A DNA stretch of 50,989 bases from positions 1-50,989 of the IMG/VR virus record IMGVR_UViG_3300022744_000039; one strand, 5' to 3'. Numbering within the stretch: the first letter of the stretch is position 1; every line of letters begins with the position of its first letter. The position numbers were made by a program, and so were the translations under genes. The DNA is from a virus. The notes under the pieces were generated by a model, which did not search any database, was not told the origin of the DNA, and saw nothing but the letters and a program-made list of their open reading frames with translations. Of the stretch, positions 1-50,156 are shown piece by piece.

Positions 1-127
1 GTTCGGTATGGAAAGTGCCGCCGAATACGTCGGGACCTTCAACTACGAAGGCGCTCAAATGTATACGCTCGGAGGCTTCCCCGGCATCAAGTTGACCCCG
101 GATGATCGGCAATCTATCATCGTCGGT
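1..127. repeat. Terminal overlap: 1..127 is identical to 50863..50989
   Basis: Both ends read base by base and the same 127 nt occur (gttcggtatggaaagtgcc...ctatcatcgtcggt). This implies a circular or permuted 50,862-bp unit. The length is typical of an assembler k-mer overlap. Confidence 0.95.
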
Positions 128-322
128 GATCTGTATAAGGTCCGTGATCCCTCACTTCTTCTGTCTCTGGACAGTTATGAAGGGTATGATCCAAGGTACC
201 CGGAGCACTCTCTTTATATTCGAACGGAGATTGAAGTTAATGGCTGTCCCTGTTACGTCTATGAATACAACCGAAGCCTCCCGGAGACGGCACGGATCAG
301 GTCCGGTGATTGGGCAGCGTAA
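1..322 (+). CDS. Gamma-glutamylcyclotransferase-like (AIG2/GGCT fold) protein, 3' part; 5' part is at 50804..50989
   Basis: The reading frame is continuous across the circular junction. The joined product starts (M)IEHIFVYGTLRRGQGANRV, the YGTLRxG signature of the GGCT/AIG2 fold, and is about 120 aa. Confidence 0.75.
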   Translation, partial: FGMESAAEYVGTFNYEGAQMYTLGGFPGIKLTPDDRQSIIVGDLYKVRDPSLLLSLDSYEGYDPRYPEHSLYIRTEIEVNGCPCYVYEYNRSLPETARIRSGDWAA

Positions 323-980
323 GCGGGTATTCATCGTCGGAAATCAGATCAAAGACTATGCTCTGCTTTTTCAAACCCGCAATCTCCAATTTATGGGGAC
401 GCGAAAGATTGAAGAAGCCGATGTTGTTGTCTTTACTGGTGGTGCAGACATCAACCCGAGACTGTACGGGGAACGTGCTATTCCCTCTACAGCGTTTTCC
501 GAGACCCGTGATACCGCCGATATGGCCGCATGGCACGCCACACAGAAACATCAAGTCTGTGTTGGTATTTGTCGTGGGGCTCAGTTTCTGAACGTCATGT
601 GTGGCGGAACTCTTTGGCAAGACATTTCCCATCACAAATACGATCACCACATCATCGACCGAATGACTGGTACTCGTGTTTGGGCAACAAGTACACACCA
701 TCAACAAATGATCCCAGGAGAAGGGGCACGTATAGTGGCTACGGCTGGCGTAGCTATGACCAAGAAGTCTGATGGAGCTATATGGACTCGTCCAGTAAAC
801 CAGATGGGAGAAGTTATTTCTATCGATGGAGATCGTGTCGACTACGAAGTGATCGAGTACCCAGAACGCAATGTTCTGTGCTTCCAACCGCACCCGGAGA
901 TTGACCGAGCGTCGCTCCCGTTGCGCAACTATTTCTTCAACCGCCTGGGCATCATGCTCGCAAGTGTGAAAAGGGATTGA
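306..980 (+). CDS. Class I glutamine amidotransferase-like / peptidase C26 (gamma-glutamyl hydrolase type)
   Basis: Nucleophile elbow VCVGICRGAQFLNV and the His-Glu motif CFQPHPE are present, as is the N-terminal strand RVFIVGN. The start is uncertain: GTG 306 overlaps the upstream stop, with ATG 393 as the alternative. The track ATG at 102 lies inside the upstream gene. Confidence 0.8.
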   Translation: MIGQRKRVFIVGNQIKDYALLFQTRNLQFMGTRKIEEADVVVFTGGADINPRLYGERAIPSTAFSETRDTADMAAWHATQKHQVCVGICRGAQFLNVMCGGTLWQDISHHKYDHHIIDRMTGTRVWATSTHHQQMIPGEGARIVATAGVAMTKKSDGAIWTRPVNQMGEVISIDGDRVDYEVIEYPERNVLCFQPHPEIDRASLPLRNYFFNRLGIMLASVKRD

Positions 981-981
981 T

Positions 982-2127
982 ATGTGTGGACATGTTGGTG
1001 TCGCTGGCACCATGGCTAAAGTAGACATTGATGTCTTCAATGATCTGCTGTACTTCGATACGCTGCGAGGTCCTCACAGCACTGGTGTTGCTGCTGTCAA
1101 TCGCAATTCAACGAATCGAAGCTGGGACCTGCTGAAGCGGGTTGGTCCGGCGTATCAGCTTATGGAGAATAAGCGGTACGATTCGGTTGTCTCCCTCGGA
1201 AATTCGGCCATTATCGGTCATAACCGACATGCTACGGTCGGTAAGATCAACAACGCTAACGCTCACCCGTTCGAATTTGAGCACATTGTCGGTGCTCACA
1301 ATGGAACTATCCCGTGGGACGAGCGGTCCTCCATTATCGGGGGCGACAAATTCGATACCGACTCCGAAGGTATCTTTAACATGATCAATGAGTTTGGGAT
1401 CGAACAGACAATCCCCGAACTTTATGGGGCTTGGGCTCTGGTCTGGTATGATAAGCGTGATCACACCCTGAACATGCTTCGAAATGATCAGCGCGATCTT
1501 TTCTATGTCATTTCGAAGTCTGGTAGGACAATCTATTGGGCATCTGAATCCGCTATGCTTCATGCCGCTCTGATGCGTCGTGGTATTGAATATGAGAAGG
1601 CAACTTATATTCGTCCGGACGTACACTATAAGTTCAGAATTCCGGACACTCATGGTGGTGAGTTTGGTGATCCTGAACAGGTGAAGCTTTGTGGGCGCAC
1701 AGAAGCGACGAAAAGAACGTATCCGGGGTACACTCATGGCTTCCCGAACCGGGGCAAGGAAGAGGGTGACAGTGGCCTCCCTTTTGGTGCGAGGGGTGGT
1801 CCGACGACTCCGACTATTGGTAAGCAGCTTACGGACTCTAATGACGACGAAGATTGGGCACGACCCAGTGTAGCAGTACAGAAGAAACGGAAGATCAAAA
1901 CCCCTCTTCTTGTCTGCTACAAAAACGAAGTCATGGGAGAAAGGGCCTACAAGGCTCGTACGGGACAGACGTGCTGTCAATGTGACAAGGTTGTCCCGTT
2001 TGAAGAAGTTCATGAAGGAAAGGAACGGGTCAAGTTTATGACCAAGGATACCTTCCTCTGTGAAGAATGTGCTGAAGACGATTGGGTCTCCAGTTGGTTT
2101 GGTGAAGCTCAAAGGATTATGCAATGA
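982..2127 (+). CDS. Ntn-type (class II) glutamine amidotransferase-like protein with a C-terminal zinc-ribbon-like tail
   Basis: It begins MCGHVGVAG, with Cys2 as the Ntn nucleophile, followed by SAIIGHNRHATVG and the NAHPF motif. The C-terminus has CCQC, about 25 residues, then CEEC. The start lies 1 nt after the upstream stop. Confidence 0.7.
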   Translation: MCGHVGVAGTMAKVDIDVFNDLLYFDTLRGPHSTGVAAVNRNSTNRSWDLLKRVGPAYQLMENKRYDSVVSLGNSAIIGHNRHATVGKINNANAHPFEFEHIVGAHNGTIPWDERSSIIGGDKFDTDSEGIFNMINEFGIEQTIPELYGAWALVWYDKRDHTLNMLRNDQRDLFYVISKSGRTIYWASESAMLHAALMRRGIEYEKATYIRPDVHYKFRIPDTHGGEFGDPEQVKLCGRTEATKRTYPGYTHGFPNRGKEEGDSGLPFGARGGPTTPTIGKQLTDSNDDEDWARPSVAVQKKRKIKTPLLVCYKNEVMGERAYKARTGQTCCQCDKVVPFEEVHEGKERVKFMTKDTFLCEECAEDDWVSSWFGEAQRIMQ

Positions 2128-2927
2128 AGATTCTCGTCGGTGCCGATCCGGAACTGTTTCTGTTCAACCGGAATTCAAACAAGTTCGTCAGTTGCCATAA
2201 CATGATCCCCGGCACGAAGTATAACCCTCACAAGGTAAACTTCGGCGCTGTTCAAGTCGATGGCATGGCGGCTGAATTTAACATCGATCCTGCTGCGACC
2301 GGTGAAGAGTTCGTCCGCAACATCAATGCGGTTCGTGAGCAGCTTCAGAACATGGTGCCTGGGTATCAACTCATGGCTTCCCCTGTAGCTGACTTCAACG
2401 AAGAGACGATGAAGTCTCAACCTCCCGAGGCATTGGAGCTGGGCTGTGAACCAGATTATTGTGCTTGGACTGATGACATTAACCCTCGTCCTGATGGTGC
2501 TGTCAGCTTCCGCAGTGGCGCTGGCCACATCCATATCGGATGGACTTCAGACGTCGATATCCGCTCTGTTAACCACCGTGCCGACTGCGTGGCTGTCGTT
2601 AAGCAGATGGACTATTACCTTGGTCTTCCTAGTCTGCTCTGGGACCCTGATAACCGTCGCCGCTCTCTGTATGGTCGCGCTGGCGCTTTTCGTATTAAGC
2701 CATACGGTGTTGAATATCGTACACTTAGCAATGCTTGGGTCGGTAATGAACGACTCATTAAGTGGGTATATGCTGCAACTCGTCAAGCGATGGCAGACCT
2801 CTCGGCTGGTGTGAAAGCTGTTGACAAGTACGGTGATGCCGCTCGTGACATCATTGACAACAACCGGGTTGACTGGCCCACGACCAGTAACATTAAACTT
2901 CCTGTGTCTCTCCCTGTAGCTGCATAA
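2124..2927 (+). CDS. GCS-superfamily carboxylate-amine ligase (phiEco32-like COOH-NH2 ligase type 2)
   Basis: The N-terminus MKILVGADPELFLFN and the later GHIHIGW and EYRTLSN motifs match my recollection of the COOH-NH2_lig family. An ATGA overlap couples it to the upstream gene. Confidence 0.6.
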   Translation: MKILVGADPELFLFNRNSNKFVSCHNMIPGTKYNPHKVNFGAVQVDGMAAEFNIDPAATGEEFVRNINAVREQLQNMVPGYQLMASPVADFNEETMKSQPPEALELGCEPDYCAWTDDINPRPDGAVSFRSGAGHIHIGWTSDVDIRSVNHRADCVAVVKQMDYYLGLPSLLWDPDNRRRSLYGRAGAFRIKPYGVEYRTLSNAWVGNERLIKWVYAATRQAMADLSAGVKAVDKYGDAARDIIDNNRVDWPTTSNIKLPVSLPVAA

Positions 2928-2937
2928 GAGGTAAACT

Positions 2938-3561
2938 ATGGTTTCTCCGTATCAAACTCCTGAGGATGCTGCACAACATCTGAACCATACGATCATTATG
3001 TACGATGATCGCCCGGTGTACGTGCAAGAAGTCTTCAGGGCCGGGGGCGTTATTCGTCTCAGCCTGCTACCTGTTCCTAGTCTTCGTGACCCGTTTGCTG
3101 TCGATCTTTTCGATCCGCTGATCGATGCGAAGATCATGGGTCAACGTCTTGGTTACTGCAATCTTGGCTCAGGGCTGGGGGCCACGTGGGTCAGCCGAAT
3201 CCCGGCACGACAATATCATCAAGGCCTTTGTGGACAAAACCTCTCCATCGGTAATGTCAATGGACGAGGAAATGTTCTCCGTTGGGACAGCTTGATGCGT
3301 CGAGCCGAGTTTGCTGACATGCTGCGCCGTCAGTACCCTTCGTACAAGGAAGTGCTGAAGCAACTCGAAAACGATCATGACATTCCGTCTATCGCCTTCC
3401 ATCCTCACCTGGCTATTGAACGTCAGGAGCTTGGGTACTATCTGCTTCTTTACAAGGCCGAGCGTGTTGCGTGGGGCGACCCTCTGCAATTCAAGCTTCC
3501 AAAGAAGTTCGAGTATCTGAAAGAGACCCTCAACAAGTGTGGAGTTCCGTATGTCGCTTAA
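2938..3561 (+). CDS. Hypothetical protein (207 aa) embedded in the ligase cassette
   Basis: An ATG start is preceded by a GAGG ribosome-binding site, and the ORF fills the gap between two ligase genes. No motif recognised. Confidence 0.6.
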   Translation: MVSPYQTPEDAAQHLNHTIIMYDDRPVYVQEVFRAGGVIRLSLLPVPSLRDPFAVDLFDPLIDAKIMGQRLGYCNLGSGLGATWVSRIPARQYHQGLCGQNLSIGNVNGRGNVLRWDSLMRRAEFADMLRRQYPSYKEVLKQLENDHDIPSIAFHPHLAIERQELGYYLLLYKAERVAWGDPLQFKLPKKFEYLKETLNKCGVPYVA

Positions 3562-4582
3562 GACCGATTGGTATAACCGTCCGTTCGAAGATTACTTCAA
3601 CAATCAGTACGGTGGTTTCGGACGTAATGTTCCTGAAGGAGCTGAAGTTGGAATCGAGATCGAAGTCGAAGGCCGAAATCTGCCCCGAAACGGGATTACC
3701 GGTTGGACTGTCGTTGAGGATCACAGCCTACGAGGAGAGTCGGCGGAATATGTCTTTAGGGCTCCTGAACCCCGCACCCGCGTGCCAACCCGTCTGGCAA
3801 CACTTTCGGGACATCTCGCGCGTGAGGGCGTCGAAGTAAACCAGAGCTATCGGACTTCTGTCCATGTCCACATGAATGTGCGTGGCTGGCAGATCAAGAA
3901 GATTTACAACAACATCATGTTGTACATCATCTTCGAAGACATTCTTGGTGAAATGGCAGGCAAGGACCGTATCGGTAACCTGTTCTGTCTTCGGGCTAAG
4001 GATGCTGAGTTCTTTCTCGATCAGCTTCGACAATCTATCATCACCGACAACATCGGCCTGATGAATTCTCAGAATCTGCGATATAGTGCTGTTAACCCCT
4101 TGGCTCTCTTTGTCCACGGTTCCCTTGAGTTCCGGGCCTTTCGGGGCACTACGGATACGGCCCTCATTCAAGAGTGGGTAGACACTTTGTTTGCCATTCG
4201 TGATGCGGCTCAACGGTTTGACAACCCTATCCAGATTGTCGAACAGATGAGTTCAATGGGTGCTCGTGACTTTGCGCGGTCGATCTTTACCGATGAACAG
4301 ATCAGCCGTTGGACAGGCAATTGGGAAGAACACATCTATGAGGGTATTGGTTTGATCCAGCACGCCGCTTACGGTCATGGTTGGGTTGTAACCGATATCA
4401 ATCGAAAGATTCGTGCTAAGTCTCAGGACACTATGGCATTCACTCAGGCTATGAGAATTCTCCGTGATCCGGACGGTCTTCGCCCCGGTCAATGGGTTCA
4501 GCCAGCACCGCCTGAACCGGCCGTACTCCATATAGATGAAATCGATTTTGACGACATGGCCCAAGATGAGGAAGACTTGTAA
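3551..4582 (+). CDS. Amidoligase_2-family putative amidoligase (GCS/glutamine synthetase-like fold)
   Basis: Motifs GIEIEVEG, GESAEYVF, TSVHVHMNV and LEFRAFRGT are present. I prefer ATG 3551 with GGAG 8 nt upstream over the track GTG at 3539. Confidence 0.75.
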   Translation: MSLKTDWYNRPFEDYFNNQYGGFGRNVPEGAEVGIEIEVEGRNLPRNGITGWTVVEDHSLRGESAEYVFRAPEPRTRVPTRLATLSGHLAREGVEVNQSYRTSVHVHMNVRGWQIKKIYNNIMLYIIFEDILGEMAGKDRIGNLFCLRAKDAEFFLDQLRQSIITDNIGLMNSQNLRYSAVNPLALFVHGSLEFRAFRGTTDTALIQEWVDTLFAIRDAAQRFDNPIQIVEQMSSMGARDFARSIFTDEQISRWTGNWEEHIYEGIGLIQHAAYGHGWVVTDINRKIRAKSQDTMAFTQAMRILRDPDGLRPGQWVQPAPPEPAVLHIDEIDFDDMAQDEEDL

Positions 4583-5337
4583 TGACACTCCACATTTACG
4601 CCTGGAACCAAGCATCGGAGGGTGCCCGTGAACTCGCAGAAGCTCTTGGAATTCGACGCATCAAAGCTGAACGCTCAACCTATGTTGGTCGGCCTGACAA
4701 GACAGTTATCAATTGGGGAGCGTCCACTGTGCCGGATAATGTGGCAGCAGCGACCCTACTCAATGCGCCTTCTAATGTGGGTGCGATGTCCAACAAAAAT
4801 ACTTTCTTTGACCTACTATCCATTGGGGACGCACGTCTTCCGGAGCACACGACGCAATCTCAAACTGCGTCTCAATGGTTGCGTTCCGGTGACAAAGTTG
4901 TCGAACGTCACGTTCTCAACGGGCACAGCGGAGCCGGTATTCGAATTGTCGAAAATGGACTTGACTTGCGTACCGCGCCGTTGTATACTAAGTATGTACC
5001 GAAGAAGTATGAATATCGTGTCCACTTCGGCGGCGGTGAAATCATCGACGTACAGCGCAAAATCCGTGATCCCAACCGTGAGCCTACGGATTGGACAGTT
5101 CGGAATCACCAGAACGGGTTCATTTACGTGCGGAATGGTGTCCGAGAGGCAATGCCTCATGATGTTCTTGAGCAAGCAACCATTGCTTTCCGAGAGAGCG
5201 GCCTGGATTTCGGAGCAGTTGACGTCATCTATAACCAAAGCCGAGCGGAAGCTTACGTTCTGGAAATCAACACAGCACCCGGCCTGACGGGAGAAACGGT
5301 CAATAGCTATGCAAACTACTTCCGGCAGTTCCTTTAG
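4582..5337 (+). CDS. ATP-grasp carboxylate-amine ligase (RimK/glutathione synthetase-like)
   Basis: Motifs HSGAGIRIV, YEYRVHFGGGEIIDVQRK and GAVDVIYN...AYVLEINTAPGL are present. A TAATG overlap couples it to the upstream gene. Confidence 0.8.
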   Translation: MTLHIYAWNQASEGARELAEALGIRRIKAERSTYVGRPDKTVINWGASTVPDNVAAATLLNAPSNVGAMSNKNTFFDLLSIGDARLPEHTTQSQTASQWLRSGDKVVERHVLNGHSGAGIRIVENGLDLRTAPLYTKYVPKKYEYRVHFGGGEIIDVQRKIRDPNREPTDWTVRNHQNGFIYVRNGVREAMPHDVLEQATIAFRESGLDFGAVDVIYNQSRAEAYVLEINTAPGLTGETVNSYANYFRQFL

Positions 5338-5630: not shown

Positions 5631-5830
5631 CACCCTGTTATATCTGCGGAGCACCTATCAGTGAACTCCGCCTTGATGCACGAGACATGAAGACCCGTCC
5701 GTGCATGACGTGTGAGACAATCATCGCTGAGACCGCTAATGAGCGCGTCCGAGAGCGACAAGAAGAAGAAGATGACGAGTTCATGCAACTCGATCTAGAA
5801 GAGTATCTCCATGACCTTGAGTCTATTTAA
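5627..5830 (+). CDS. Small zinc-ribbon-like protein with an acidic tail
   Basis: ATGA overlap with the upstream gene. The sequence has CYICGAP...CMTCE followed by an acidic C-terminus. Confidence 0.5.
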   Translation: MTPCYICGAPISELRLDARDMKTRPCMTCETIIAETANERVRERQEEEDDEFMQLDLEEYLHDLESI

Positions 5831-6281
5831 GGAAGTTCTCGACCAAGGGCCTCCCGGTGCTATCATCGCCGGGGGAGCCATTCGGGACCTGTTCTTTGGA
5901 AAGTCCTTCAAAGACATCGACGTGTTTTATGTTGGTGATGGCTATACATGGCCGGAGAGTTTTACCTTCGCGGAAGGCCCTAAGTGGACCGACTATGGTG
6001 ATCTCCACAGTGTTGTCGAAATTACCAACCTGAAGTACAAAGGGAATGATGTTCAAGTGATGCGTCTCACTGAGCACCCTATCCCATACGTTTATCAGTT
6101 CGATATCGATCTGTGTAAGGCGTACTACGATGGTGGTCTGTATTACACGGAAGACTTCGTAAAGGATGCCGTTAATAAGACACTGACGATCAATGGTGGA
6201 CACGGTAAACGCGCCGTCGAACGTGCTAACCGGATCAACGAAAAGTATAACTTTATTATCAAGGAACCTGACTATCTCTAA
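5811..6281 (+). CDS. Minimal nucleotidyltransferase (Pol-beta superfamily, CCA-adding/poly(A) polymerase head-domain-like)
   Basis: IIAGGAIRDLFFGKSFKDIDVFY matches the GGxVRDxLLGxxxxDxD signature of class II CCA-adding/poly(A) polymerase heads. At 156 aa it has no body or tail domains. Confidence 0.5.
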   Translation: MTLSLFKEVLDQGPPGAIIAGGAIRDLFFGKSFKDIDVFYVGDGYTWPESFTFAEGPKWTDYGDLHSVVEITNLKYKGNDVQVMRLTEHPIPYVYQFDIDLCKAYYDGGLYYTEDFVKDAVNKTLTINGGHGKRAVERANRINEKYNFIIKEPDYL

Positions 6282-6936
6282 CGTAGAACTTGTATCTGTA
6301 ACTCAAGGTGTCGGTCGCTGGGCTAAGTACACCGCAGATGATATCATTGCTTACCTTGCTCGGGTAAGTAATCCGTCTAACGAGAGCAACACTGAAACTG
6401 CACCTAGGCTCCTTCGGTACCTGATCCGTAAGAAGCACTGGTCACCTTTTGAGATGGTGAACGCCTGTGTCTATATTGAGTGTCCGCGAGATATCAGCCG
6501 ACAGATACTTCGACATCGCTCTTTCAGCTTCCAAGAGTTCAGTGGACGTTACGCCGCGTATGACGACCTTCTCTCCGAAAGAGAACCACGAGATCAAGAT
6601 ACGGGAAATCGGCAAAACTCACTTCCTATTGTGGACGACGCGAAAAGGCTCCTATGGGAGAAGCTCGTCGAGACGGTTCGAAGTGTTTGTATCGGAGCCT
6701 ACCGATCTGCACTCGATATGGGGATTGCTAAAGAAGTCGCGCGTTCGCTGCTCCCCGAAGGCCTAGTCCCGACCCGACTGTACATGAACGGAACTCTTCG
6801 TTCATGGATTCACTTTTGGGATGTACGGTGTACCCCGGAAACTCAGAAAGAACATCGAGAAATTGCAGAGAAAACTCGTGAAGCTATTCTCAAAGCCTAC
6901 CCCCAAATTGGAGAAATCATCAATGAAGCGTCCTGA
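6193..6936 (+). CDS. thyX: FAD-dependent thymidylate synthase ThyX
   Basis: The ThyX signature RHRSFSFQEFSGRY (RHRxxSxxxxSxR) and HWSPFEM are present. There is no start codon between the upstream stop (6281) and the conserved core. The in-frame starts are ATG 6193 and GTG 6223, so the gene overlaps the upstream gene by 59-89 nt. Confidence 0.85.
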   Translation: MVDTVNAPSNVLTGSTKSITLLSRNLTISNVELVSVTQGVGRWAKYTADDIIAYLARVSNPSNESNTETAPRLLRYLIRKKHWSPFEMVNACVYIECPRDISRQILRHRSFSFQEFSGRYAAYDDLLSEREPRDQDTGNRQNSLPIVDDAKRLLWEKLVETVRSVCIGAYRSALDMGIAKEVARSLLPEGLVPTRLYMNGTLRSWIHFWDVRCTPETQKEHREIAEKTREAILKAYPQIGEIINEAS

Positions 6937-7129
6937 AGAAGTTGTAGGTAATGAACTGCGTAATGCGTTCAATGAATATATCCGACTGAAGAAAGGGATG
7001 ATCGACCTTGGGTATTCAGTGCGTCATCCTTGGAAAACGTATGATTATCCAAATGTTTACGCTCGGCCAGGACCTGATACGGATCGCCTTGAAATTGAAA
7101 AGACAGTCTCGCGGACGTTCAAATACTGA
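6923..7129 (+). CDS. Hypothetical protein (68 aa)
   Basis: ATG 6923 with GGAGAA 8 nt upstream. The earlier part of the track ORF lies inside thyX. Confidence 0.5.
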   Translation: MKRPEEVVGNELRNAFNEYIRLKKGMIDLGYSVRHPWKTYDYPNVYARPGPDTDRLEIEKTVSRTFKY

Positions 7130-8769
7130 TGGGTAGTAAATTTGTCAGACACATGGCATGTGACCACTGCGGGTCATCCGACGCAAATAGTCTATACGAC
7201 GACGGGCATCAGTACTGTTCGGTTTGCAAACACTATGTACCCTCAAGTGGAGAGAAAAAGCCTGAAACTTCCGGAGAGCGGCGACCTGATCGTCCTTTCA
7301 AGATTCGGGCGGTACCGTCTAGTGGTTTTCAGCCGCTCGAAGACCGATCTCTATCTGCTTCGTCTACACAGAAGTTTGGAGTTTCCAAGCTCCCTGACGG
7401 CGGACATGTCTATCCGTATTTCAATGCGGACGGGCATCACATCGCAAACAAGATACGGCCCGGTGGTCCTAAGTTCTTCTTCTGGGAAGGTGATCACACT
7501 CAGGCAACGCTTTTTGGACAAGCACAGTTTCCGGTTGGCTGTGCTAAGGCTATCACTATTGTCGAAGGTGAATGCGATGCCATGGCTGCCTTCGAGCTTA
7601 CGGGCAGTCGTTGGCCATGCGTATCAGTCCACTCTTCAGCGGCTGCTACAAAGAACGTCGCGGACAACTTCGAATACCTGAATAGTTTCGACAAGATCGT
7701 CATCTGTTTCGACAAGGATGAGGCTAAGGTACGACCTGATGGTACGACCTTCTATCCTGGTCAAGAAGCTGCTCTAGCGGTTGCAGCTATGTTCCCTATT
7801 GGCAAGGCGTTCATCATGACGCTTCGGGAACACAAGGATGCAAATGACTATCTGATCAACAAGAAGCAGACTGAATTTGTCAAAGAGTGGTATCAAGCTC
7901 AACCTTACACGCCTTCCGGGCTCAAGCTCGGTAAGGATATGTGGGACGAGATCAGCACCCCTAAGAACTATGAGACCTGTCCTTATCCGTGGAAAGGGAT
8001 CAACGACAAAACGTATGGCATCCGTCTCAGTGAGCTTGTCATCGTCACCGCAGAGACAGGCGTTGGTAAGACGTCCTTTCTGAAGGAGATTGAACATTAC
8101 ATCCTCAACAATACCGACAAGGGTGTGGGTTTTCTCCATCTCGAAGAACCCAACGCCGACACCGCCTTGGGGCTTATGTCTATTACTGCTAATAAGCCTC
8201 TGCATCTACCTGATGTTCGAGAGAATGTGACGTCCGATGAACTTCGCAATTATTATGATGCTACTGTTAACAGTGATCGTGTGGTCATCTGGGATCACTT
8301 CGGCAGTAATTCTGTACACGAGGTCTTGGCCAAAATCCGCCACATGCATAATCTCGGTTGCAAATATATTGTGCTTGACCATCTTAGCATCGTGGTTAGT
8401 GATCAATCTGGCGACGAACGGAAGCAACTAGATGAAATCTCGACTAAACTCAAGACTCTGTGCATGGAGCTTAACATTAGCGTTATTGCTGTCATCCATC
8501 AGAACCGGCAGGGTCAAATCCGTGGCACAGCCGGGGTTGAGCAACTGGCCAACATTGTGGTCAAACTTTTCCGAGACAAGGAAGACCCGGATGACTGGCG
8601 TCGTAATGTCACCAAAGTCGTCATCCAAAAGAATCGTTTTTCTGGTATTACCGGCCCTGGTGTCTACCTCTGGTACAATCCGGCCACTGGTCGTCTGGTT
8701 GAGCTAACCCCTGATGAAATCAAAAAGTATGAGTCCGGAGCTTCTGTCCCAAGTGAAGAACAGTGGTAG
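7129..8769 (+). CDS. Bifunctional DNA primase/helicase (T7 gp4-like)
   Basis: It has an N-terminal Cys4 zinc finger (CDHCGSSD...CSVCKH), a TOPRIM motif IVEGECDAMA, Walker A TAETGVGKTSF and Walker B YIVLDHLS. Confidence 0.9.
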   Translation: MGSKFVRHMACDHCGSSDANSLYDDGHQYCSVCKHYVPSSGEKKPETSGERRPDRPFKIRAVPSSGFQPLEDRSLSASSTQKFGVSKLPDGGHVYPYFNADGHHIANKIRPGGPKFFFWEGDHTQATLFGQAQFPVGCAKAITIVEGECDAMAAFELTGSRWPCVSVHSSAAATKNVADNFEYLNSFDKIVICFDKDEAKVRPDGTTFYPGQEAALAVAAMFPIGKAFIMTLREHKDANDYLINKKQTEFVKEWYQAQPYTPSGLKLGKDMWDEISTPKNYETCPYPWKGINDKTYGIRLSELVIVTAETGVGKTSFLKEIEHYILNNTDKGVGFLHLEEPNADTALGLMSITANKPLHLPDVRENVTSDELRNYYDATVNSDRVVIWDHFGSNSVHEVLAKIRHMHNLGCKYIVLDHLSIVVSDQSGDERKQLDEISTKLKTLCMELNISVIAVIHQNRQGQIRGTAGVEQLANIVVKLFRDKEDPDDWRRNVTKVVIQKNRFSGITGPGVYLWYNPATGRLVELTPDEIKKYESGASVPSEEQW

Positions 8770-9419: not shown

Positions 9420-11220
9420 CAAACACTGGATTATAGACATTGAAACAGACCCAATTCCAGCCACACTCATTCATTGCATCGTACTCCAAAACGCATCCAC
9501 CCGAGAGCGTCTGGTCTTTGACAACCTTCATCTTGCTGGCTTTGTCCGCTGGCTTGCTGACCATCCTGACATTTATCTAGTAGGTCACAACGCTGTCTCG
9601 TTTGACGTTCCTACTCTCAATCGCCTGCTTGATTTGGGTTTCCCCCTTGATCGTGTTGTGGATACTCTCGTCCTTAGTTACCTATATGATCCTGTCATGC
9701 CTAGGCCTCAAGGATGCAGAAAAGGTCCACACTCCCTAGAAGCTTGGGGTATACGTCTTCGTATGCCTAAAAGGGACTTCCATGATTTCTTTGAGTTCAC
9801 TCCGGAAATGCTCACGTACTGTATTCAGGACGTTAACATTTCTACCGAACTTTATGACCGTCTATCTGCTCGAATGCGTAGTAGAGGATTCAGTGAGAAG
9901 TCTTGCGAGATTGAACACAAGATCAGGATCGTCGTCGATGAACAGGAACGTAACGGCTTTTACTTCAACCGAGGGGACGCTGTTGCGCTGCATTCACGAC
10001 TTGTCGAACGTCAAGAGCAGCTTGCAGCACCTATTAAGGAACTCTTCCCACCTGTCCTCGTCCGACAAAACAGCTATCAATATCGTCCTAAGAAAGATGG
10101 AACCCCTAACTCCCATTATCTCCGACATTGTGAGCAATACCCGAAGATCGAATGGGACGAAGATGGAGAGACATATCACGTTCTAGATTGGCAAGAGTTT
10201 AATATTGGTTCACCACAGCAAAGGGTCAATCGTCTGCTATCTCTCGGATGGCAGCCGCAAAAGTTTACCGAGGCCGGGAACCCCCAAGTCGACGAAGAAA
10301 GCCTTCTGGCGTTCGCTGAAGAGTCGGGACAGGCGGAGGTTAAAGCGATGGCTGAGTGGCTTGTCCTCCAAGGGCGAGCTACCATGGTCCAAGGGTGGGT
10401 CAATAATTGTGGTCCTGACAGCCGAATCCATGGACGTGTGCTCACTTGTGGGGCAGCCACTCGACGGATGACGCATAGTTCTCCGAACACAGCTAACATT
10501 CCGAAGGCGAAAGCGAAGGTACCGTATGGGATTGAATGTCGGCGTCTTTGGACGGTTAGTGACCCGGAGACTAGACGGCTCGTGGGTTATGACGCTGCTG
10601 GATTGGAAATGCGGTGCTTTGCACACTACCTTAACAATCCGAAAGCGTTCGAACTGTACACCACTGGTGACCCGCACCAATTTAACGCCGATCTTCTCGG
10701 TATCGAACGGGACCCCGTTAAGAACGTATTCTACGCTTTCATTTACGGTGCCGCTAACGAGAAGCTTGGCTGGACAGGTAACACTAAATTGGTGGACCCT
10801 AAGGAACAGAAAAACTTTGGAGCATCGATCAGACGTAAACTCATCAAGTACACGCCCGGACTCAAAGAACTCACCGATGCTATCGCAGCAGAAGGGGACT
10901 GGCTTCAAACTATCGACGGAGGATATGTTCGCTGTTTTTCACCGCACGCTCGGATCAACTACAAGCTCCAGAGTGCCGGTGGTATCGTAATGAAACAGGC
11001 TTCCATCTTCATTGAAGAGCGGATCAAAGCCAAAGGATATGATGCACTAAAGGTTAATGACGTACATGACGAATCACAACACGACTGCGATTATCGATGC
11101 GCAGAGGAAGTCGGAAAGCTCAAAGTCCAGGCCCTACAGGATGCCGGAGAAGAACTCGGATTCAGAGTCCCTCTCGATGGCGAGTACAAAATCGGACTCA
11201 ACTGGGCCGAGACACACTAA
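9400..11220 (+). CDS. Family A DNA polymerase with 3'-5' exonuclease domain
   Basis: Exonuclease motifs: ExoI IIDIETD, ExoII LVGHNAVSFDV, ExoIII YCIQDV. Polymerase motifs: A GYDAAGLEMR, B KNVFYAFIYGA, C VNDVHDES. A GTG start at 9400 is needed to include ExoI. Confidence 0.9.
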   Translation: MYLLPTNKHWIIDIETDPIPATLIHCIVLQNASTRERLVFDNLHLAGFVRWLADHPDIYLVGHNAVSFDVPTLNRLLDLGFPLDRVVDTLVLSYLYDPVMPRPQGCRKGPHSLEAWGIRLRMPKRDFHDFFEFTPEMLTYCIQDVNISTELYDRLSARMRSRGFSEKSCEIEHKIRIVVDEQERNGFYFNRGDAVALHSRLVERQEQLAAPIKELFPPVLVRQNSYQYRPKKDGTPNSHYLRHCEQYPKIEWDEDGETYHVLDWQEFNIGSPQQRVNRLLSLGWQPQKFTEAGNPQVDEESLLAFAEESGQAEVKAMAEWLVLQGRATMVQGWVNNCGPDSRIHGRVLTCGAATRRMTHSSPNTANIPKAKAKVPYGIECRRLWTVSDPETRRLVGYDAAGLEMRCFAHYLNNPKAFELYTTGDPHQFNADLLGIERDPVKNVFYAFIYGAANEKLGWTGNTKLVDPKEQKNFGASIRRKLIKYTPGLKELTDAIAAEGDWLQTIDGGYVRCFSPHARINYKLQSAGGIVMKQASIFIEERIKAKGYDALKVNDVHDESQHDCDYRCAEEVGKLKVQALQDAGEELGFRVPLDGEYKIGLNWAETH

Positions 11221-11631: not shown

Positions 11632-11708
11632 GCCACTCTAGCTCCAATTGGTAGAGCGTCCGTCTTGTAAATGGTTGGTTCTCAGTTCGAATCTGAGGGG
11701 TGGCACCA
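11632..11708 (+). tRNA. tRNA-Thr (anticodon UGU), CCA encoded
   Basis: Hand-folded cloverleaf. Acceptor GCCACTC/GGGTGGC, D arm GCTC-CAATTGGTA-GAGC, anticodon loop CTTGTAA, T arm CTCAG-TTCGAAT-CTGAG, discriminator A, then CCA. Confidence 0.85.
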
Positions 11709-11709
11709 A

Positions 11710-11786
11710 CGCGGGGTAGCTCAGGTGGCAAGAGCACTTGGCTCATAATCAAGAGGTCGTGGGTTCGAAGCCCACCCCCGCAACCA
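11710..11786 (+). tRNA. tRNA-Met (anticodon CAU) with initiator-type acceptor stem, CCA encoded
   Basis: Hand-folded. Acceptor CGCGGGG/CCCCGCA gives a C1xA72 mismatch. D arm GCTC-AGGTGGCAA-GAGC, anticodon arm CTTGG-CTCATAA-TCAAG, T arm GTGGG-TTCGAAG-CCCAC, then ACCA. It lies 1 nt after tRNA-Thr. Confidence 0.8.
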
Positions 11787-45807: not shown

Positions 45808-46029
45808 ATGTTCAAGCTGCAATTCTATAGCCGCCCTGACCTGATCGAAGGTACGAACGAGGCCTACGGTTACGACGGTTCAATGACGGTCGAGACTTTC
45901 GACCCTGCGGATATCCAAGAGTACTTGGACCGCATGGATTGTGTATTTGGGCCGTGCATTGTGATTGTTGCCCCTACTAAGGGACATCAACATCGGGCCT
46001 ACCACGTTACTCGCAAATACAACTATTAA
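45808..46029 (+). CDS. Early hypothetical protein (73 aa)
   Basis: It is the first ORF of the plus arm, with ATG preceded by AAGGGA. Confidence 0.5.
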   Translation: MFKLQFYSRPDLIEGTNEAYGYDGSMTVETFDPADIQEYLDRMDCVFGPCIVIVAPTKGHQHRAYHVTRKYNY

Positions 46030-46042
46030 GGAGGTTAGACTA

Positions 46043-46168
46043 ATGTTCAACAGCATTCGCCGCATCAACCTGGTTTACATCTGTAATCCTGGCCCGATGT
46101 CAACTCACAATATTGTGATACAGGCCGGCACGATGTGGAGGGTTGACAGACGATCTATCATCATCTAG
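46043..46168 (+). CDS. Early small protein (41 aa)
   Basis: ATG 46043 is preceded by a strong AAGGAGG 8 nt upstream. The product is MFNSIRRINLVYICNPGPMSTHNIVIQAGTMWRVDRRSIII. Confidence 0.45.
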   Translation: MFNSIRRINLVYICNPGPMSTHNIVIQAGTMWRVDRRSIII

Positions 46169-46316
46169 TCGCGCGCGCTTTCCTTCCCCTTCGCGGAATA
46201 GGTCTGCAAAAACGCAGAGCCGTTCTGCAAAATTGCCTATCGACATTCCCGGTTGCGGTCACTAGCTTAGGGCTAGGTCAGGCATCCGGCTTGGCCGTTT
46301 GGGGAAGGTCCCTCCG

Positions 46317-46607
46317 ATGCGTCTCGGTAAGCGCGAAAGGGCGAAGGTTCAGGAGAACGAAAGGGCGATGGCCCTTGGCGTTCCCTTCGAACGTACGACC
46401 CTGCGCCTCTCAACCGACGGCAAGCATGGCGTGGGCCAAGGCAAGGCGTATCTGCAAGGGACGCATACGCAGGGCTTCCGCGCGCCGCAAGGTGACGGTC
46501 GAGCCTACGGCCAAGCGGTCACACTCGGGGCGGGTCCGAACAATTCGCGCATGGGGCGCATGGGTACCGCATTCGACGGTATCGCGTGCCGCATAGCGCG
46601 CAAGTAA
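46317..46607 (+). CDS. Doubtful ORF (96 aa, Gly/Arg-rich) in the GC-rich leader
   Basis: ATG with GGGGAAGG 8 nt upstream, and third codon positions mostly G/C. The product is low-complexity, and another frame and the antisense strand are also open here, as expected for GC-rich non-coding DNA. Confidence 0.3.
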   Translation: MRLGKRERAKVQENERAMALGVPFERTTLRLSTDGKHGVGQGKAYLQGTHTQGFRAPQGDGRAYGQAVTLGAGPNNSRMGRMGTAFDGIACRIARK

Positions 46608-46720
46608 CCGCGTCTTATCGGCCGGGCGATCATTCCCGGATAGGTGGCCCTAGGGGCTTTTCGTGCGCCGTTCGCAAGTCGGTTCACGATCGGTTCCGTT
46701 AGTGGTGAGAGGGTGTGACG

Positions 46721-46770
46721 CACCCGAACCCTACGTGTCTAAGGTCAACGGTTGACACCCGAACCTTACG
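46721..46770. promoter_or_regulatory. Direct repeat - palindrome - direct repeat element (CACCCGAACCnTACG / GTCAAC-G-GTTGAC / CACCCGAACCnTACG)
   Basis: The 15-nt direct repeats lie at 46721..46735 and 46756..46770 and flank the 13-nt palindrome at 46744..46756. The palindrome has the same AAC-N-GTT core as the 455xx operators. Confidence 0.4.
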
Positions 46771-46989
46771 CGACGCATCCCGCAAGGCGGACGCATACCT
46801 TTAATGTATGCCGCCTAACCTTGCCTGCCTGAAAGGGACGGGGGATGCACTCTGAACCTGCTAGTTAATCGCTAGCAGTTAGGCGGAGCACGCCCACAAA
46901 ATGTCAACAAAACCTGGCCCTACGGTGCGGACTGTCGTTCCGTCTAACTCCTAGCGATTATGCTAGGGGAACCTGAAAGGTCATACGCT

Positions 46990-47613
46990 ATGTCTAACAA
47001 GCTGAAGCTGGCGGCGGGTGCGACCATTGACAAGGCTATTGAGGCCATCGTCAAGGCGTCGGCGTCGCTGGGTCCGGACATCCACAAGTGGGGTGTTCAG
47101 GCGATGATGCACGCTGCTGAACACGGTGATGCACGCAAGGTGGACCGTCTGTTCAAGGGGCTTCACGGGGCCAATGCGCCGGAGGCGTTCAAGGATTGGG
47201 TTATGGAATACTCGCCCATCCGCTGGAACGGTGACGGTGAGGTCGGCATTCTGAAGTCCACGGCCAAGCTGTTCAAGCCCTTCAACATCGAAGGCGCGAA
47301 CGGCAACCCCTACTGGAACCGCATCGCGGTGCAGAAGCAACCCCTCACCCTTGATAAGCTGTTGAAGCTGATCTCGGGAATGTCGAAGAAGATCGACAAG
47401 GCGGAAGCTGACGACCTGATCGCGCCCGGTGAGAGCCTGGCCACCATGCGTCTGCTCGCGACTCGGACCCTTGCTGCGGCGGAGGGCGCTATTCGGGAAG
47501 CGGCGGAACTCCAGAAGAAGATCGACGCTGAGGCGCTGGCGGCGAATGCCAACCCTCCGCGCCGTCGTCGTCAGCGTACCCCTGAGGCGCTGCCCGAGAC
47601 TGTTGCCGCCTAA
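46990..47613 (+). CDS. Hypothetical protein (207 aa), GC-rich island
   Basis: ATG 46990 with GAAAGG upstream and strongly G/C-biased third codon positions. The C-terminus is basic (PPRRRRQRTPE). No motif recognised. Confidence 0.65.
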   Translation: MSNKLKLAAGATIDKAIEAIVKASASLGPDIHKWGVQAMMHAAEHGDARKVDRLFKGLHGANAPEAFKDWVMEYSPIRWNGDGEVGILKSTAKLFKPFNIEGANGNPYWNRIAVQKQPLTLDKLLKLISGMSKKIDKAEADDLIAPGESLATMRLLATRTLAAAEGAIREAAELQKKIDAEALAANANPPRRRRQRTPEALPETVAA

Positions 47614-47723
47614 GGTGGCGTACCCCTCTACCCCGTACCGGCTATTGTCGTGTCCATAGATATATGGGGCGTGGTCGCTACTATGGCGAGGCGACCATCT
47701 ATCATCAACGCTAGGTGAGGCAT

Positions 47724-47909
47724 ATGTGGCTGTTGTCTATGCTTGAACCAAGATCGCCCTATAGGGCTCATGAGTACACAATGCGTGTGCTGGCCCTTGA
47801 GGCGGCATTGGCACATGACAACCCCTATCGGCGTGATTCGTTCGAATGGGGACAGAAGCCGTCGCCTTATCGTCTGTGGGGAATGTCGGAGGTCTGGGCT
47901 CATGAGTGA
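47724..47909 (+). CDS. Hypothetical protein (61 aa)
   Basis: ATG after AGGTGAGG. Its stop overlaps the next start (ATGAGTGA). Confidence 0.4.
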   Translation: MWLLSMLEPRSPYRAHEYTMRVLALEAALAHDNPYRRDSFEWGQKPSPYRLWGMSEVWAHE

Positions 47910-48063
47910 CTTTGCGACGCTTCTGGCTGAGGCTCGTCAGATGCAACTGACAGTGCGTCGGTTACTGAAAGCTGATCCGAACAACATCAAGCGTCGGGAG
48001 GCTTTGGTCTCTTACGACCGTAAGGTTATGGACCTGCTCGACCGTGGAGCCAGGTTCCGTTAA
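47902..48063 (+). CDS. Hypothetical protein (53 aa)
   Basis: MSDFATLLAEARQMQL... The upstream part of the track ORF is an out-of-context extension. Confidence 0.45.
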   Translation: MSDFATLLAEARQMQLTVRRLLKADPNNIKRREALVSYDRKVMDLLDRGARFR

Positions 48064-48083
48064 TTTCATTCTGGAGAACGATC

Positions 48084-48254
48084 ATGAACACGCAAACTAA
48101 TCCAAAGATCGGTGTTGAGGTTGCTGAGAACGGCACTTTTCGTGCGTCGCTGCGTCATCCTGTGACGAATGAGCTGCTGCGCCTGTGTGACAAGCGCCAG
48201 AGCTACGGTGAAGCGTTCGAGCAGGCGCACAAGATGGCGATGGGGGAAGCATGA
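48084..48254 (+). CDS. Hypothetical protein (56 aa), not in the ORF track
   Basis: ATG 48084 with GGAGAA upstream. The product is MNTQTNPKIGVEVAENGTFRASLRHPVTNELLRLCDKRQSYGEAFEQAHKMAMGEA. An ATGA overlap couples it to the next gene. Confidence 0.45.
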   Translation: MNTQTNPKIGVEVAENGTFRASLRHPVTNELLRLCDKRQSYGEAFEQAHKMAMGEA

Positions 48255-48736
48255 CCACCCGCCCTGCGGAGGTCCGGAGCATGGCTGACGATCTGATTGA
48301 GAGGGAAAAGCTGAAGGCGGACGCCGGTCTGGCCCATGTGCCGACTGACTTGACCTACGAGTTGCGGATGGGCGTGGCTGGAGAGGGGGCGCGCGCCTAC
48401 GACTGGAAGGATAAGCCCCATCGCCTCGTCTATGACGCGTGCCGGGAGATAGAGCACCAAGCCGACCGCATCCGCGAACTGGAGGCGGAGCGGGATGAGT
48501 GGAAGTCGGCGAGCGAAAGCATCCTGTCGGATCAGGCCGAACTTGGCCGCATCCTGCAAGATCGCATCGACCAGTTGACCGTGGAGCGCAACGGCTTTGA
48601 GCGCCTCGCACGCACCGCAGAGTCCCGTCTCGCGGAGGCTGTGGTGGCGTTGGAGCGGATCGACGACGAAGCCATGGACTGGATTTCCAGTCAGATCGCC
48701 CGCCAAACCCTGTCCCGTATCCAGGAGAGAAACTGA
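48251..48736 (+). CDS. Hypothetical coiled-coil protein (161 aa), GC-rich island
   Basis: Third codon positions are strongly G/C-biased and the central part is a heptad-like E/R/L-rich helix. Confidence 0.65.
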   Translation: MTTRPAEVRSMADDLIEREKLKADAGLAHVPTDLTYELRMGVAGEGARAYDWKDKPHRLVYDACREIEHQADRIRELEAERDEWKSASESILSDQAELGRILQDRIDQLTVERNGFERLARTAESRLAEAVVALERIDDEAMDWISSQIARQTLSRIQERN

Positions 48737-48801
48737 TGAACGACTATTTCTATTGGTGGGCACACCTGCTCGGATCACTAGAGGAGATTGGATTCCGATG
48801 A
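48736..48801 (+). CDS. Possible micro-ORF (21 aa) bridging two genes
   Basis: TGATG start overlap and ATGA stop overlap. The product is MNDYFYWWAHLLGSLEEIGFR. Confidence 0.25.
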   Translation: MNDYFYWWAHLLGSLEEIGFR

Positions 48802-48974
48802 ACCAACTTCATTGGCAGAGTTTTCACCAGATGTGGGTTGTTCTGTCTGTATTGAGTCTCTTTGGTGTCCACGGATGGTTCATGTTTGGACATCCGATCA
48901 AAGGGGTCATCCACGTCATCACCGGTCTATCAGTTATTTCGGCGTATGCTCTGATCTACGGTTTTGGGACTTGA
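48798..48974 (+). CDS. Small membrane protein (58 aa, two hydrophobic segments)
   Basis: MNQLHWQSFHQMWVVLSVLSLFGVHGWFMF...VIHVITGLSVISAYALIYGFGT. Confidence 0.5.
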   Translation: MNQLHWQSFHQMWVVLSVLSLFGVHGWFMFGHPIKGVIHVITGLSVISAYALIYGFGT

Positions 48975-48999
48975 CAAATAGCAATTCATGCTGTATCCT
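48971..48999 (+). promoter_or_regulatory. Sigma70-like promoter TTGACA-N17-TATCCT upstream of the paralog/cassette operon
   Basis: A perfect -35 at 48971..48976, a 17-nt spacer and -10 TATCCT at 48994..48999. It lies about 33 nt upstream of ATG 49032. Confidence 0.45.
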
Positions 49000-49031
49000 A
49001 TCCTTTGGATGCGGCCAGGAAAGGGAATACC

Positions 49032-49544
49032 ATGTTTACTGTTGGACAAGAGGTCATCTGTATCAACGCCCAAGGGTCTCAGACTCTTGTTGTCGGTGAT
49101 GCTTACACTGTTTCCGAGGTGACTCCGAATGGGTCGGCCATCAAGATTGACGATCTATCATCGCGGTTCCGGGCTGATCGCTTCCAAGATGTTGATGAAT
49201 ACGATGCAGAAGAAGAAGAAGCCGCTGCTCTGGACAGTGAGCCCTATGATTGGGAAGAATTCCACGGGTGCTGCGGTGTCGCTGATGTGTTCTTTGGAAA
49301 CGAACCTGTTGTGCGCTTGGCACGTCTCCATGTGACGGAACGAAATCTGAGCGACTTCGGTATGCTGCTGAGCGTCGTCACTACGGATCAACTCACTGAG
49401 GCTACACAGAAAGCGTTTGATGACGCAGGCTGGGAAAAGGTCGGTGTGTCAGGCAATCGTCACCAAAACACTCAGCTTCATCTTTTCCGTAAGATTCTGA
49501 AGCCGGTGGCCGAGACTGTCGTCGAAGAAGAACGGAGGTTCTAA
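49032..49544 (+). CDS. Paralog family member 1 (170 aa), unknown function, GCCG motif
   Basis: MFTVGQEV..., RADRF, PYDWEEFHGCCGVADVFFG and AGWEKVGVSGNRH. It aligns along its whole length with the next gene. Confidence 0.65.
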   Translation: MFTVGQEVICINAQGSQTLVVGDAYTVSEVTPNGSAIKIDDLSSRFRADRFQDVDEYDAEEEEAAALDSEPYDWEEFHGCCGVADVFFGNEPVVRLARLHVTERNLSDFGMLLSVVTTDQLTEATQKAFDDAGWEKVGVSGNRHQNTQLHLFRKILKPVAETVVEEERRF

Positions 49545-50041: not shown

Positions 50042-50156
50042 TCCGCGCTACGGATGTGAGGTCGCTCCCGACCCGAATTTCCCGAATATTCGTCGGCGTC
50101 AAGGACGTTATATAGGCCAGTACGAGTACTACGAAGCGTACCAATACGGCGTTTGG

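Follow-up and report, generated by a model that had tools for sequence, protein, structure and literature searches.

A compact seven-gene amide-bond cassette in a Zobellviridae-like podovirus genome and its conserved 207-aa protein

What would a phage build, and then trim, with three ligases that form amide bonds, three enzymes that act on gamma-glutamyl groups and a seventh protein that no Pfam family covers? This question is raised by a cassette of seven genes spanning the ends of the IMG/VR virus record IMGVR_UViG_3300022744_000039 (positions 1 to 50,989; "the window" below refers to this whole stretch of 50,989 nucleotides). An initial annotation, made from the letters of the sequence, had described seven co-directional and tightly packed genes wrapping the window break, and all seven open reading frames (ORFs) were confirmed on the plus strand, overlapping or near-abutting across the window ends. 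The cassette is a fresh example of an already described phage cassette (phiEco32/LUZ24/RIO-1 type), and with a probability that we put at roughly 60% its products carry out an early-expressed, cytoplasmic glutamyl-amide "build-and-trim" chemistry.

To judge from the papers that cite them, Iyer et al. (2009) and Hardies et al. (2013) described this gene set in phages, and the initial annotation rightly connected it with the phiEco32-type cassettes in the former paper. Papers published since refer to it as a "seven-gene peptidoglycan modification cassette" or an "operon metabolizing gamma-glutamyl amide linkages"; the same operon is described in PMC5498523, PMC4819975 and PMC11945000, and the carriers given by Duhaime et al. 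(2017; PMC5498523) are RIO-1, phiEco32, 7-11, PA11, tf, MR299-2, LUZ24, PaP3 and CW02. Upon infection by phage HP1 the genes of the cassette are "expressed immediately" (PMC7082346). The full-text literature searched (subscription journals lie outside its coverage) yielded no experimentally determined product or target, in agreement with the initial statement that none had been demonstrated; as for a characterised pathway with the same genes, the gene set is thus on record, its product is not. The cassette is very widespread in phages yet biochemically uncharacterised, predicted in 2009 and with no product reported since. Carriers of its COOH-NH2 ligase include therapy-relevant LUZ24-like Pseudomonas phages and the phiEco32/Kuravirus phages of E. 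coli, and solving it would uncover a novel modification, either post-translational or of the cell envelope, or a novel early-infection metabolite. To this genuine and long-recognised question, for which cultured carriers are better suited than a metagenomic genome, the window contributes a clean, compact and complete example and little beyond. What the present analysis adds is the recognition of the ~200-aa protein as a core, structurally novel component, and of the ATP-grasp enzyme as specifically RimK-like.

Gene arrangement and catalytic residues of the six enzymes

The last 127 nucleotides of the window (50863-50989) are an exact direct repeat of the first (1-127), an assembly duplicate such as a k=127 assembler leaves on a contig that is circular or terminally redundant. 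The true circle therefore measures 50,862 bp, and the window is a complete, circularly assembled podovirus genome of about that size. The stop/start overlaps reported at 2124 (ATGA) and 4582 (TAATG) are present, and the TTG start of the first gene overlaps the upstream TGA. Such packing (gaps of at most 11 nt, or overlaps) extends on both sides of the cassette, from 49005 to at least 6281, and spacing alone therefore sets no seven-gene boundary; what defines the unit is homology together with co-occurrence. A promoter and terminator scan gave counts near those of shuffled controls, none of the terminator-like matches being convincing, and a hydropathy scan placed no membrane-spanning segment in any of the seven proteins.

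Families were assigned using Pfam at its curated cut-offs, PHROG profiles, NCBIfam and profile searches of the PDB. Residue invariance was read from alignments of five to nine phage genomes, with which 11-sequence alignments for genes 4, 6 and 7 agree. For most genes the aligned lineages are Zobellviridae-like phages, Bruynoghevirus, Kuravirus, Grimontviridae and a crAss-like phage, with at least three named lineages for every gene except that of the peptidase C26. The six enzyme families of the initial annotation all proved correct: five enzymes lie above the curated Pfam cut-offs, with PHROGs concurring at far stronger scores, and the ATP-grasp enzyme was recognised through its PHROG and a profile search of the PDB. 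The catalytic motifs it had quoted are present as well, with residues invariant in the compared phages for five enzymes and, for the sixth, an alignment to GlmS and a retained cysteine, so that no family can be faulted for missing catalytic residues.

Gene 1 (50804-50862, continuing at 1-322; 126 aa from a TTG start) encodes a GGACT/AIG2-like gamma-glutamyl(amine) cyclotransferase (Pfam GGACT, 67.5 bits, E = 2.1e-18) with a YGTL motif and a catalytic Glu80; Y8, G9 and E80 are invariant in seven phages. Gene 2 (306-980; 224 aa) encodes a PuuD-like peptidase C26, a hydrolase with the fold of class-I glutamine amidotransferases (GATases) (Pfam Peptidase_C26, 69.9 bits, E = 3.4e-19), whose triad Cys89/His196/Glu198 is invariant in five phages. 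Its PDB matches (3fij, 7d4r and PuuD, 6vtv) align across the GICRGAQ elbow, and its nearest named relatives are gamma-glutamyl-X hydrolases, namely PuuD, acting on gamma-glutamyl-gamma-aminobutyrate (gamma-glutamyl-GABA), SpuA-like enzymes and gamma-glutamyl-CDP-amidate hydrolase. The start is most likely the GTG at 306 rather than the ATG at 102, since the resulting 17-nt overlap with gene 1 matches the orthologue in a metagenomic relative (locus L002).

Gene 3 (982-2127; 381 aa) combines a class-II GATase of the N-terminal nucleophile (Ntn) type with a C-terminal zinc ribbon (Pfam GATase_6, 58.7 bits, E = 7.9e-16). The Ntn domain comprises residues 1-222 with Cys2 as nucleophile, the alignment to GlmS retains the Arg, Asn-Gly and Asp of the glutamine pocket, and the N-terminal cysteine is kept in eight of ten phage homologues; there is also a weak resemblance to glutaminase domains, including that of EgtC. 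Past residue 222 follow a low-complexity, variable linker and then a four-cysteine zinc ribbon (window positions 2000-2127; CCQC and FLCEEC, 17-20 aa apart). This CxxC...CxxC ribbon is conserved in L002 and in phages GP100 and CW02, and the linker varies from ~100 to ~400 aa between lineages. When compared to two-domain glutamine amidotransferases (GlmS/PurF/AsnB type), gene 3 aligns only over residues 1-222 and has no synthase or acceptor domain. Because nothing but the linker and the zinc ribbon stands in place of a synthase domain, gene 3 is predicted to be a stand-alone glutaminase or gamma-glutamyl hydrolase and not a classical two-domain amidotransferase. We also considered a LysW-like carrier and rejected it, as the ribbon precedes a non-acidic helix and not an acidic C-terminal Glu tail.

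The first of the ligases, gene 4 (2124-2927; 267 aa), is a COOH-NH2 ligase type 2, that is, a GCS2/GS-like carboxylate-amine ligase (Pfam PF14395, 36.9 bits against a cut-off of 25, E = 3.1e-09; PHROG 3815, E = 2.4e-83), in which E10, E51, H135, H137, R179, R190, E197 and R199 are invariant in 11 phages. Gene 6 (3551-4582; 343 aa) encodes an Amidoligase_2, a GS-like ATP-dependent amidoligase (Pfam PF12224, 35.0 bits against a cut-off of 22, E = 1.8e-08; PHROG 7469, E = 9e-59), with E36, E38, E66, H105, H107, E193 and R195 invariant in the same number of phages. Its start is most likely the ATG at 3551, since the 11-nt overlap with gene 5 again matches L002, a GTG at 3539 being the less likely alternative. 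Gene 7 (4582-5337; 251 aa) encodes a RimK-like ATP-grasp amino-acid ligase. It lies below the Pfam and NCBIfam cut-offs and matches PHROG 2599 with E = 7.4e-79. Searched against the PDB, its 11-sequence profile recovers RimK-family structures first (7qys, 2e-8; 4iwx and 5zct, ~1e-6), followed by weaker matches to cyanophycin synthetase, D-Ala-D-Ala ligases (1.7e-4 and weaker) and microviridin ligases. The RimK-type label given initially thus holds as a resemblance, but no RimK model of Pfam or NCBIfam was reported, the best curated matches being far under their cut-offs. Invariant in the 11-sequence alignment are G117 and G119 of the Gly-rich loop, E144-x-R146, K160 and the Mg ligands D214, E228 and N230.

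The 207-aa protein and the co-occurrence of the cassette genes

Gene 5 (2938-3561; PHROG 11055) lies between the two GS-like ligases. The initial annotation had set it aside as unplaceable; it has indeed no Pfam or whole-fold match, but it is in fact among the most consistently placed components of the cassette. No match to Pfam was found for gene 5 itself or for 54 homologues, nor any to NCBIfam or PADLOC, nor a sequence match in the PDB using the 54-sequence profile. The family is nevertheless large: searched with its profile, 1.84 billion representative proteins yield 2,828 clusters at E ≤ 1e-3, of which 1,002 at E ≤ 1e-10, nearly all of ~200 aa, while tblastn with gene 5 recovered only four records. 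A hidden Markov model of gene 5 identifies the ORF between the COOH-NH2 ligase and the Amidoligase_2 in GP100, CW02 and Rhizobium phage RHph_I3_11 (E = 1e-24 to 3e-26), and the ORFs at the equivalent position in SU10, SE131 and PhiCHU rank next among 1,415 ORFs. The corresponding ORF family of LUZ24/phiEco32-type phages aligns to the gene-5 family in a profile-profile comparison (E = 8e-5, 61% probability) over a GY..N / R.P.RQ..(Q/K)GL motif, and more distant homologues in the metagenomic loci L012 and L013 occupy the same position. Gene 5 is thus a core, consistently placed and structurally novel component of the cassette.

A first model of the protein, from a four-sequence alignment, reached a pLDDT of 79.5 and had no significant match in the PDB. 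The AlphaFold (AF2) model from the 54-sequence alignment reached a pLDDT of 95 and a pTM of 0.89, with N- and C-terminal segments mainly of beta-strand and a helical middle between them. Foldseek found no whole-fold match to this second model in the PDB (best E 0.06, TM-score <0.3), only local matches of ~50 residues to RapA, Mfd, the UvrD/PcrA Tudor domain, RimM and chromo-type domains, and the named structural matches in BFVD are all uncharacterised phage proteins, including CW02 gp8; we therefore assign it no function. Nearly invariant are G72, Y73, N75, R87, R91, Q95, G96, N101, Y133 and P134. Since the invariant and nearly invariant columns hold no Cys, His, Asp, Glu, Ser or Lys, we read these residues as a putative binding site and not as a catalytic one. 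A Pup-like tag was considered for gene 5 and rejected, the protein being confidently folded and its C-terminus not conserved.

The cassette as a whole is found far beyond this phage. A tblastn search with the COOH-NH2 ligase returned 319 isolate phage records, among them 121 Pseudomonas phages (largely LUZ24-like), 94 Escherichia phages (including phiEco32/Kuravirus), Zobellviridae of Vibrio and Salinivibrio, phages of Aeromonas, Proteus, Salmonella and Cronobacter, and the crAss-like Cellulophaga phage phi14:2. Scanning 185,579 species, each represented by one genome, gave 33 loci, mostly on contigs of phage size (40-55 kb) or shorter; just two lie on contigs above 100 kb, one of which (546 kb) holds a lone divergent ligase. 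The cassette is thus almost confined to phage-sized contigs. In 45 loci the Ntn GATase, the COOH-NH2 ligase, the Amidoligase_2 and the ATP-grasp ligase stand together on one strand in at least four gene orders, usually accompanied by C26, gene 5 and GGACT. That this co-occurrence persists despite reshuffled gene order argues for functional coupling of the genes rather than merely inherited synteny. The order is identical in GP100 and the metagenomic relatives L002, L012 and L013, and the position upstream of the primase-helicase is the same in GP100, CW02, PhiCHU and SU10.

Genes for HNH homing endonucleases are found at differing points of the cassette in other phages (GP100, 10158-10625; L011, 8538-8996; ORF24 of UFV-P2), and the copy in the window is free of them. 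Six contigs that carry the cassette (L022, L023, L026, L032, L033 and L045), three of them phage-sized (46-48 kb), were binned into metagenome-assembled genomes of Patescibacteria/Saccharibacteria and other phyla; this binning is either an error or a hint of a far wider host range.

Proposed chemistry and target

From gene content, catalytic residues, conservation, co-occurrence and restriction to phages, as described above, we infer the following chemistry and its possible targets. The seven proteins, which appear to be soluble, probably cooperate in the cytoplasm of the infected cell soon after infection. Genes 7, 4 and 6 would use ATP to activate carboxylates as acyl-phosphates and form amide bonds on a substrate bearing an amine or a carboxylate, with alpha linkages made by the RimK-like gene 7 and gamma-glutamyl-amine linkages by the GS/GCS-like genes 4 and 6. 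The C26 hydrolase, the Ntn hydrolase and the GGACT cyclotransferase would then remove or recycle gamma-glutamyl groups bearing a free alpha-amine, gamma-glutamate serving as a transient handle as it does in the Puu, butirosin (BtrG) and ergothioneine (EgtC) pathways. Gene 5, located between the GS-like ligases, would most likely act as scaffold, specificity subunit or acceptor. This role of gene 5, the zinc ribbon of gene 3 and the resemblance to RimK lead us to favour a macromolecule or a bound precursor as the target. Glutamylation of a host or phage protein or peptide comes first among the candidates, still well short of an even chance; a small amine or cofactor conjugate is a tentative second, a peptidoglycan precursor is unlikely, and a nucleotide or DNA is a doubtful last. 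A protein target had also been raised in the initial annotation, on the grounds that RimK-type ATP-grasp enzymes glutamylate ribosomal protein S6, and the resemblance of gene 7 to RimK is borne out.

Several points weigh against this build-and-trim scheme. No member of the cassette has a known substrate, product or phenotype, genes 4 and 6 have no solved relative detectable by sequence and their substrates cannot be read off, and the ranking of targets draws on weak analogies. Some of the hydrolytic enzymes might instead supply ammonia for amidation, and all three "trimmers" could be donors of this kind. Because GGACT and C26 are missing from some lineages among the 45 loci, or lie beyond the flanks fetched for them, the trimming step may not be obligatory. 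Finally, gene 5 might turn out to be a new kind of enzyme instead of an adaptor.

Other explanations of the cassette differ mainly in what the ligases would act upon. A small-molecule pathway, which we consider rather unlikely, would gamma-glutamylate and then process a free amine (a polyamine such as putrescine or spermidine) or would make a glutathione-, cofactor- or glutamate-tail-like conjugate, and thereby rewire host metabolism or neutralise a defence signal. PuuD and the SpuA-type gamma-glutamyl-GABA hydrolases as nearest characterised relatives of gene 2, the likeness of gene 3 to EgtC and the presence in the RimK family of the cofactor glutamate ligase MptN (a weak match) are in keeping with it, and pairs of a ligase and a gamma-glutamyl remover are typical of small-molecule routes such as Puu, butirosin (BtrJ/BtrG) and ergothioneine (EgtA/EgtC). 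However, no oxidase, decarboxylase or transferase that would handle a protected intermediate is conserved in the cassette across the 45 loci, and an invariant non-enzymatic gene 5 together with the zinc ribbon of gene 3 suits macromolecular recognition better. The folate version, put forward initially as a glutamate tail on the grounds that ThyX lies 850 nt downstream, needs an adjacency that is not conserved: ThyX adjoins the cassette only in close relatives of this phage, and the equivalent stretch of GP100, CW02, PhiCHU and SU10 lacks it. Bacterial folylpolyglutamate synthase is a Mur-type ligase. The standard hypothesis of the literature, omitted from the initial annotation, is instead that peptidoglycan side chains are modified for superinfection exclusion; citing papers attribute this cell-wall hypothesis to Iyer et al. 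(2009) and Hardies et al. (2013), and it is repeated in PMC5498523, PMC11945000 and PMC10580990. The ligases would build unusual linkages of stem-peptide type (gamma-glutamyl, D-Ala-D-Ala-like) on cytoplasmic precursors, the hydrolases would degrade or recycle them, and the changed envelope would block superinfection. Soluble enzymes are compatible with this scheme, modification of peptidoglycan precursors (e.g., amidation by MurT/GatD) being cytoplasmic, and the profile of gene 7 does extend to D-Ala-D-Ala ligases. Yet gene 7 is nearer to RimK than to Ddl, the set comprises no Mur-ligase-type, lipid-II-handling, exported or membrane protein, the gene-5 protein is given no role, and the papers found offer no experimental support, so that we regard peptidoglycan modification as improbable too.

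The location of the cassette, always among genes of replication and nucleotide metabolism (beside the primase-helicase, or in phi14:2 between primase and UDG), would fit a hypermodification of nucleotides or DNA bases, in which a base, modified by the ligases and amidotransferases either ahead of replication or following it, would escape restriction; in some viral contigs amidoligase and amidotransferase genes do lie beside thymidine-hypermodification genes (Lee et al.; PMC8989533). Several observations speak against the DNA-base idea, also raised in the initial annotation. The genome carries ThyX, an ordinary dTMP synthase, and the best 25 of the 63 PHROG families matched by the other 36 ORFs include no 5-hydroxymethyluracil kinase, aGPT-Pplase, hydroxymethylase, TET/JBP or DpdA-type family; the contigs assemble and read normally, and the cassette has no DNA-binding or glycosylase-fold enzyme. 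We hold such a modification to be very improbable. Even less credit is due to an auxiliary metabolism that has no dedicated product and simply raises the turnover of glutamate, ammonia and 5-oxoproline for nucleotide synthesis. Some papers do label the genes as auxiliary metabolic genes or "host material recycling" (PMC10580990, PMC5498523), and two enzymes of the set are of glutaminase type, but three dedicated ligases and a conserved adaptor-like protein would be superfluous for bulk nitrogen flux, the ligases belong to phage-specific families and are not copies of host GlnA or GshA, and the genes co-occur across the sampled phage lineages despite shuffling.

A bolder version of the build-and-trim reading, for which we see only a slim chance, takes the COOH-NH2 ligase, gene 5 and the Amidoligase_2 as an unrecognised three-component conjugation machine, with gene 5, from a phage-restricted family that lacks solved-structure relatives, as acceptor or specificity subunit for a new modification, of glutamyl type, on a host or phage macromolecule. 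The RimK-like ligase would extend this modification and the three gamma-glutamyl hydrolases would edit it, and it would serve lytic podoviruses in taking over the host or countering its defences.

Neighbouring genes and relation to known systems

The phage itself is a Zobellviridae-like podovirus of roughly 50.9 kb, with a genome of virulent type. Its early and replication genes lie on the plus strand from ~45.3 kb, across the junction, to ~17.9 kb, and the remainder consists of structural genes on the minus strand. The PHROG scan of the other ORFs gave a podovirus set with primase-helicase, family-A DNA polymerase, ribonucleotide reductase, DNA methyltransferase, Cas4-like exonuclease, terminase, head-tail adaptor, internal virion protein and tail proteins. 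The cassette stands in the early/replication arm, directly upstream of the primase-helicase (7129-8769), with the DNA polymerase downstream. The closest isolate is Pseudomonas phage GP100 (Zobellviridae), with a nucleotide match of 71% identity over 7% of the 5.4-kb region, and by this nucleotide comparison the phage appears to be new. Two adjacent tRNA genes, tRNA-Thr(TGT) and tRNA-Met(CAT), lie in the replication arm at 11632-11786. The G+C content is 0.54-0.58 at 46001-50000, in the early region, versus ~0.48 elsewhere in the genome, suggestive of a separate origin or of mosaicism in the early module.

Directly upstream of the cassette, and packed with it, are three paralogous ORFs (49005-49544, 49544-50041 and 49896-50807) with a common C-terminal domain of ~110 aa, an invariant Cys-Gly (F-x-G-C-C-G) and a conserved extreme C-terminus (E-x-x-[RK]-x-F). 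They belong to no Pfam family, match PHROGs weakly and only over the N-terminus of the first ORF, and have orthologues in L002; in other lineages the same position holds unrelated-looking paralogous pairs of 300-400 aa. We left these upstream proteins of ~300 aa out as a common cassette component, their paralogy being confined within lineages (cross-lineage E 0.09 or worse), and judged a papain-like reading of the paralogues too weak, the Cys-motif match to procathepsin S having E = 0.016 and the candidate His being missing in one of them. On the other side of the cassette, 5811-6281 encodes a minimal nucleotidyltransferase of 156 aa (Pfam PolyA_pol head domain, 9.6e-5; GGAIRD...DID motif). 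Since it is homologous (E = 1e-16) to an L002 protein with a precomputed match to Pfam Gad2 (PF26128), we regard it as a candidate gene for counter-defence of the anti-Gabija type. As listed, the ThyX ORF (6193-6936) overlaps this gene by 89 nt; because its Pfam match begins only at residue 47, its true start is probably the GTG at ~6283, giving ~217 aa, and its relatives measure 197-211 aa.

Compared to the cassettes of phiEco32, LUZ24/PaP3/tf, RIO-1/HP1, CW02 and 7-11, the one described here has in common the COOH-NH2 ligase type 2, the Amidoligase_2, the ATP-grasp ligase, the class-II GATase and GGCT/AIG2, and it shares C26 with the Zobellviridae-type versions. Like theirs, its genes share one strand and stand ahead of the primase-helicase within the early/replication region, with an ORF of ~200 aa between the GS-like ligases. 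It differs in being very compact, its seven genes being contiguous and uninterrupted by HNH or small-ORF insertions, in having GGACT at the 5' end instead of the 3' end, and in the length of its Ntn GATase (381 aa versus 517-676 aa in LUZ24/phiEco32-type phages).

Beyond phages, three kinds of systems invite comparison. Gene 7 resembles the RimK family (LysX/ArgX, MptN, CofF) in its Gly-rich loop, its E-x-R motif and its D/E/N Mg ligands, with positions 57-248 of its 315-position profile aligning to RimK structures, but the window has no RimA/RimB partners. The Puu (PuuA/PuuD), butirosin (BtrJ/BtrG) and ergothioneine (EgtA/EgtC) pathways likewise join an ATP-dependent glutamyl ligase to a remover of C26, Ntn or GGCT type. 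The enzymes that modify their intermediates are absent from the cassette, the similarities are far under equivalog cut-offs, and the cassette differs from all three in its three ligases, three removers and non-enzymatic core protein. With pupylation (PafA/Dop/Pup) it shares GS/GCL-fold carboxylate-amine ligases next to a small non-enzymatic protein, and it may share the gamma-glutamyl-lysine isopeptide chemistry, GGACT being known to cleave bonds of that type. In contrast to Pup, which is disordered and ends in a C-terminal GGQ/E, the gene-5 protein is folded and mainly beta-strand with a C-terminus that is not conserved, and neither a proteasome nor a Dop homologue is present.

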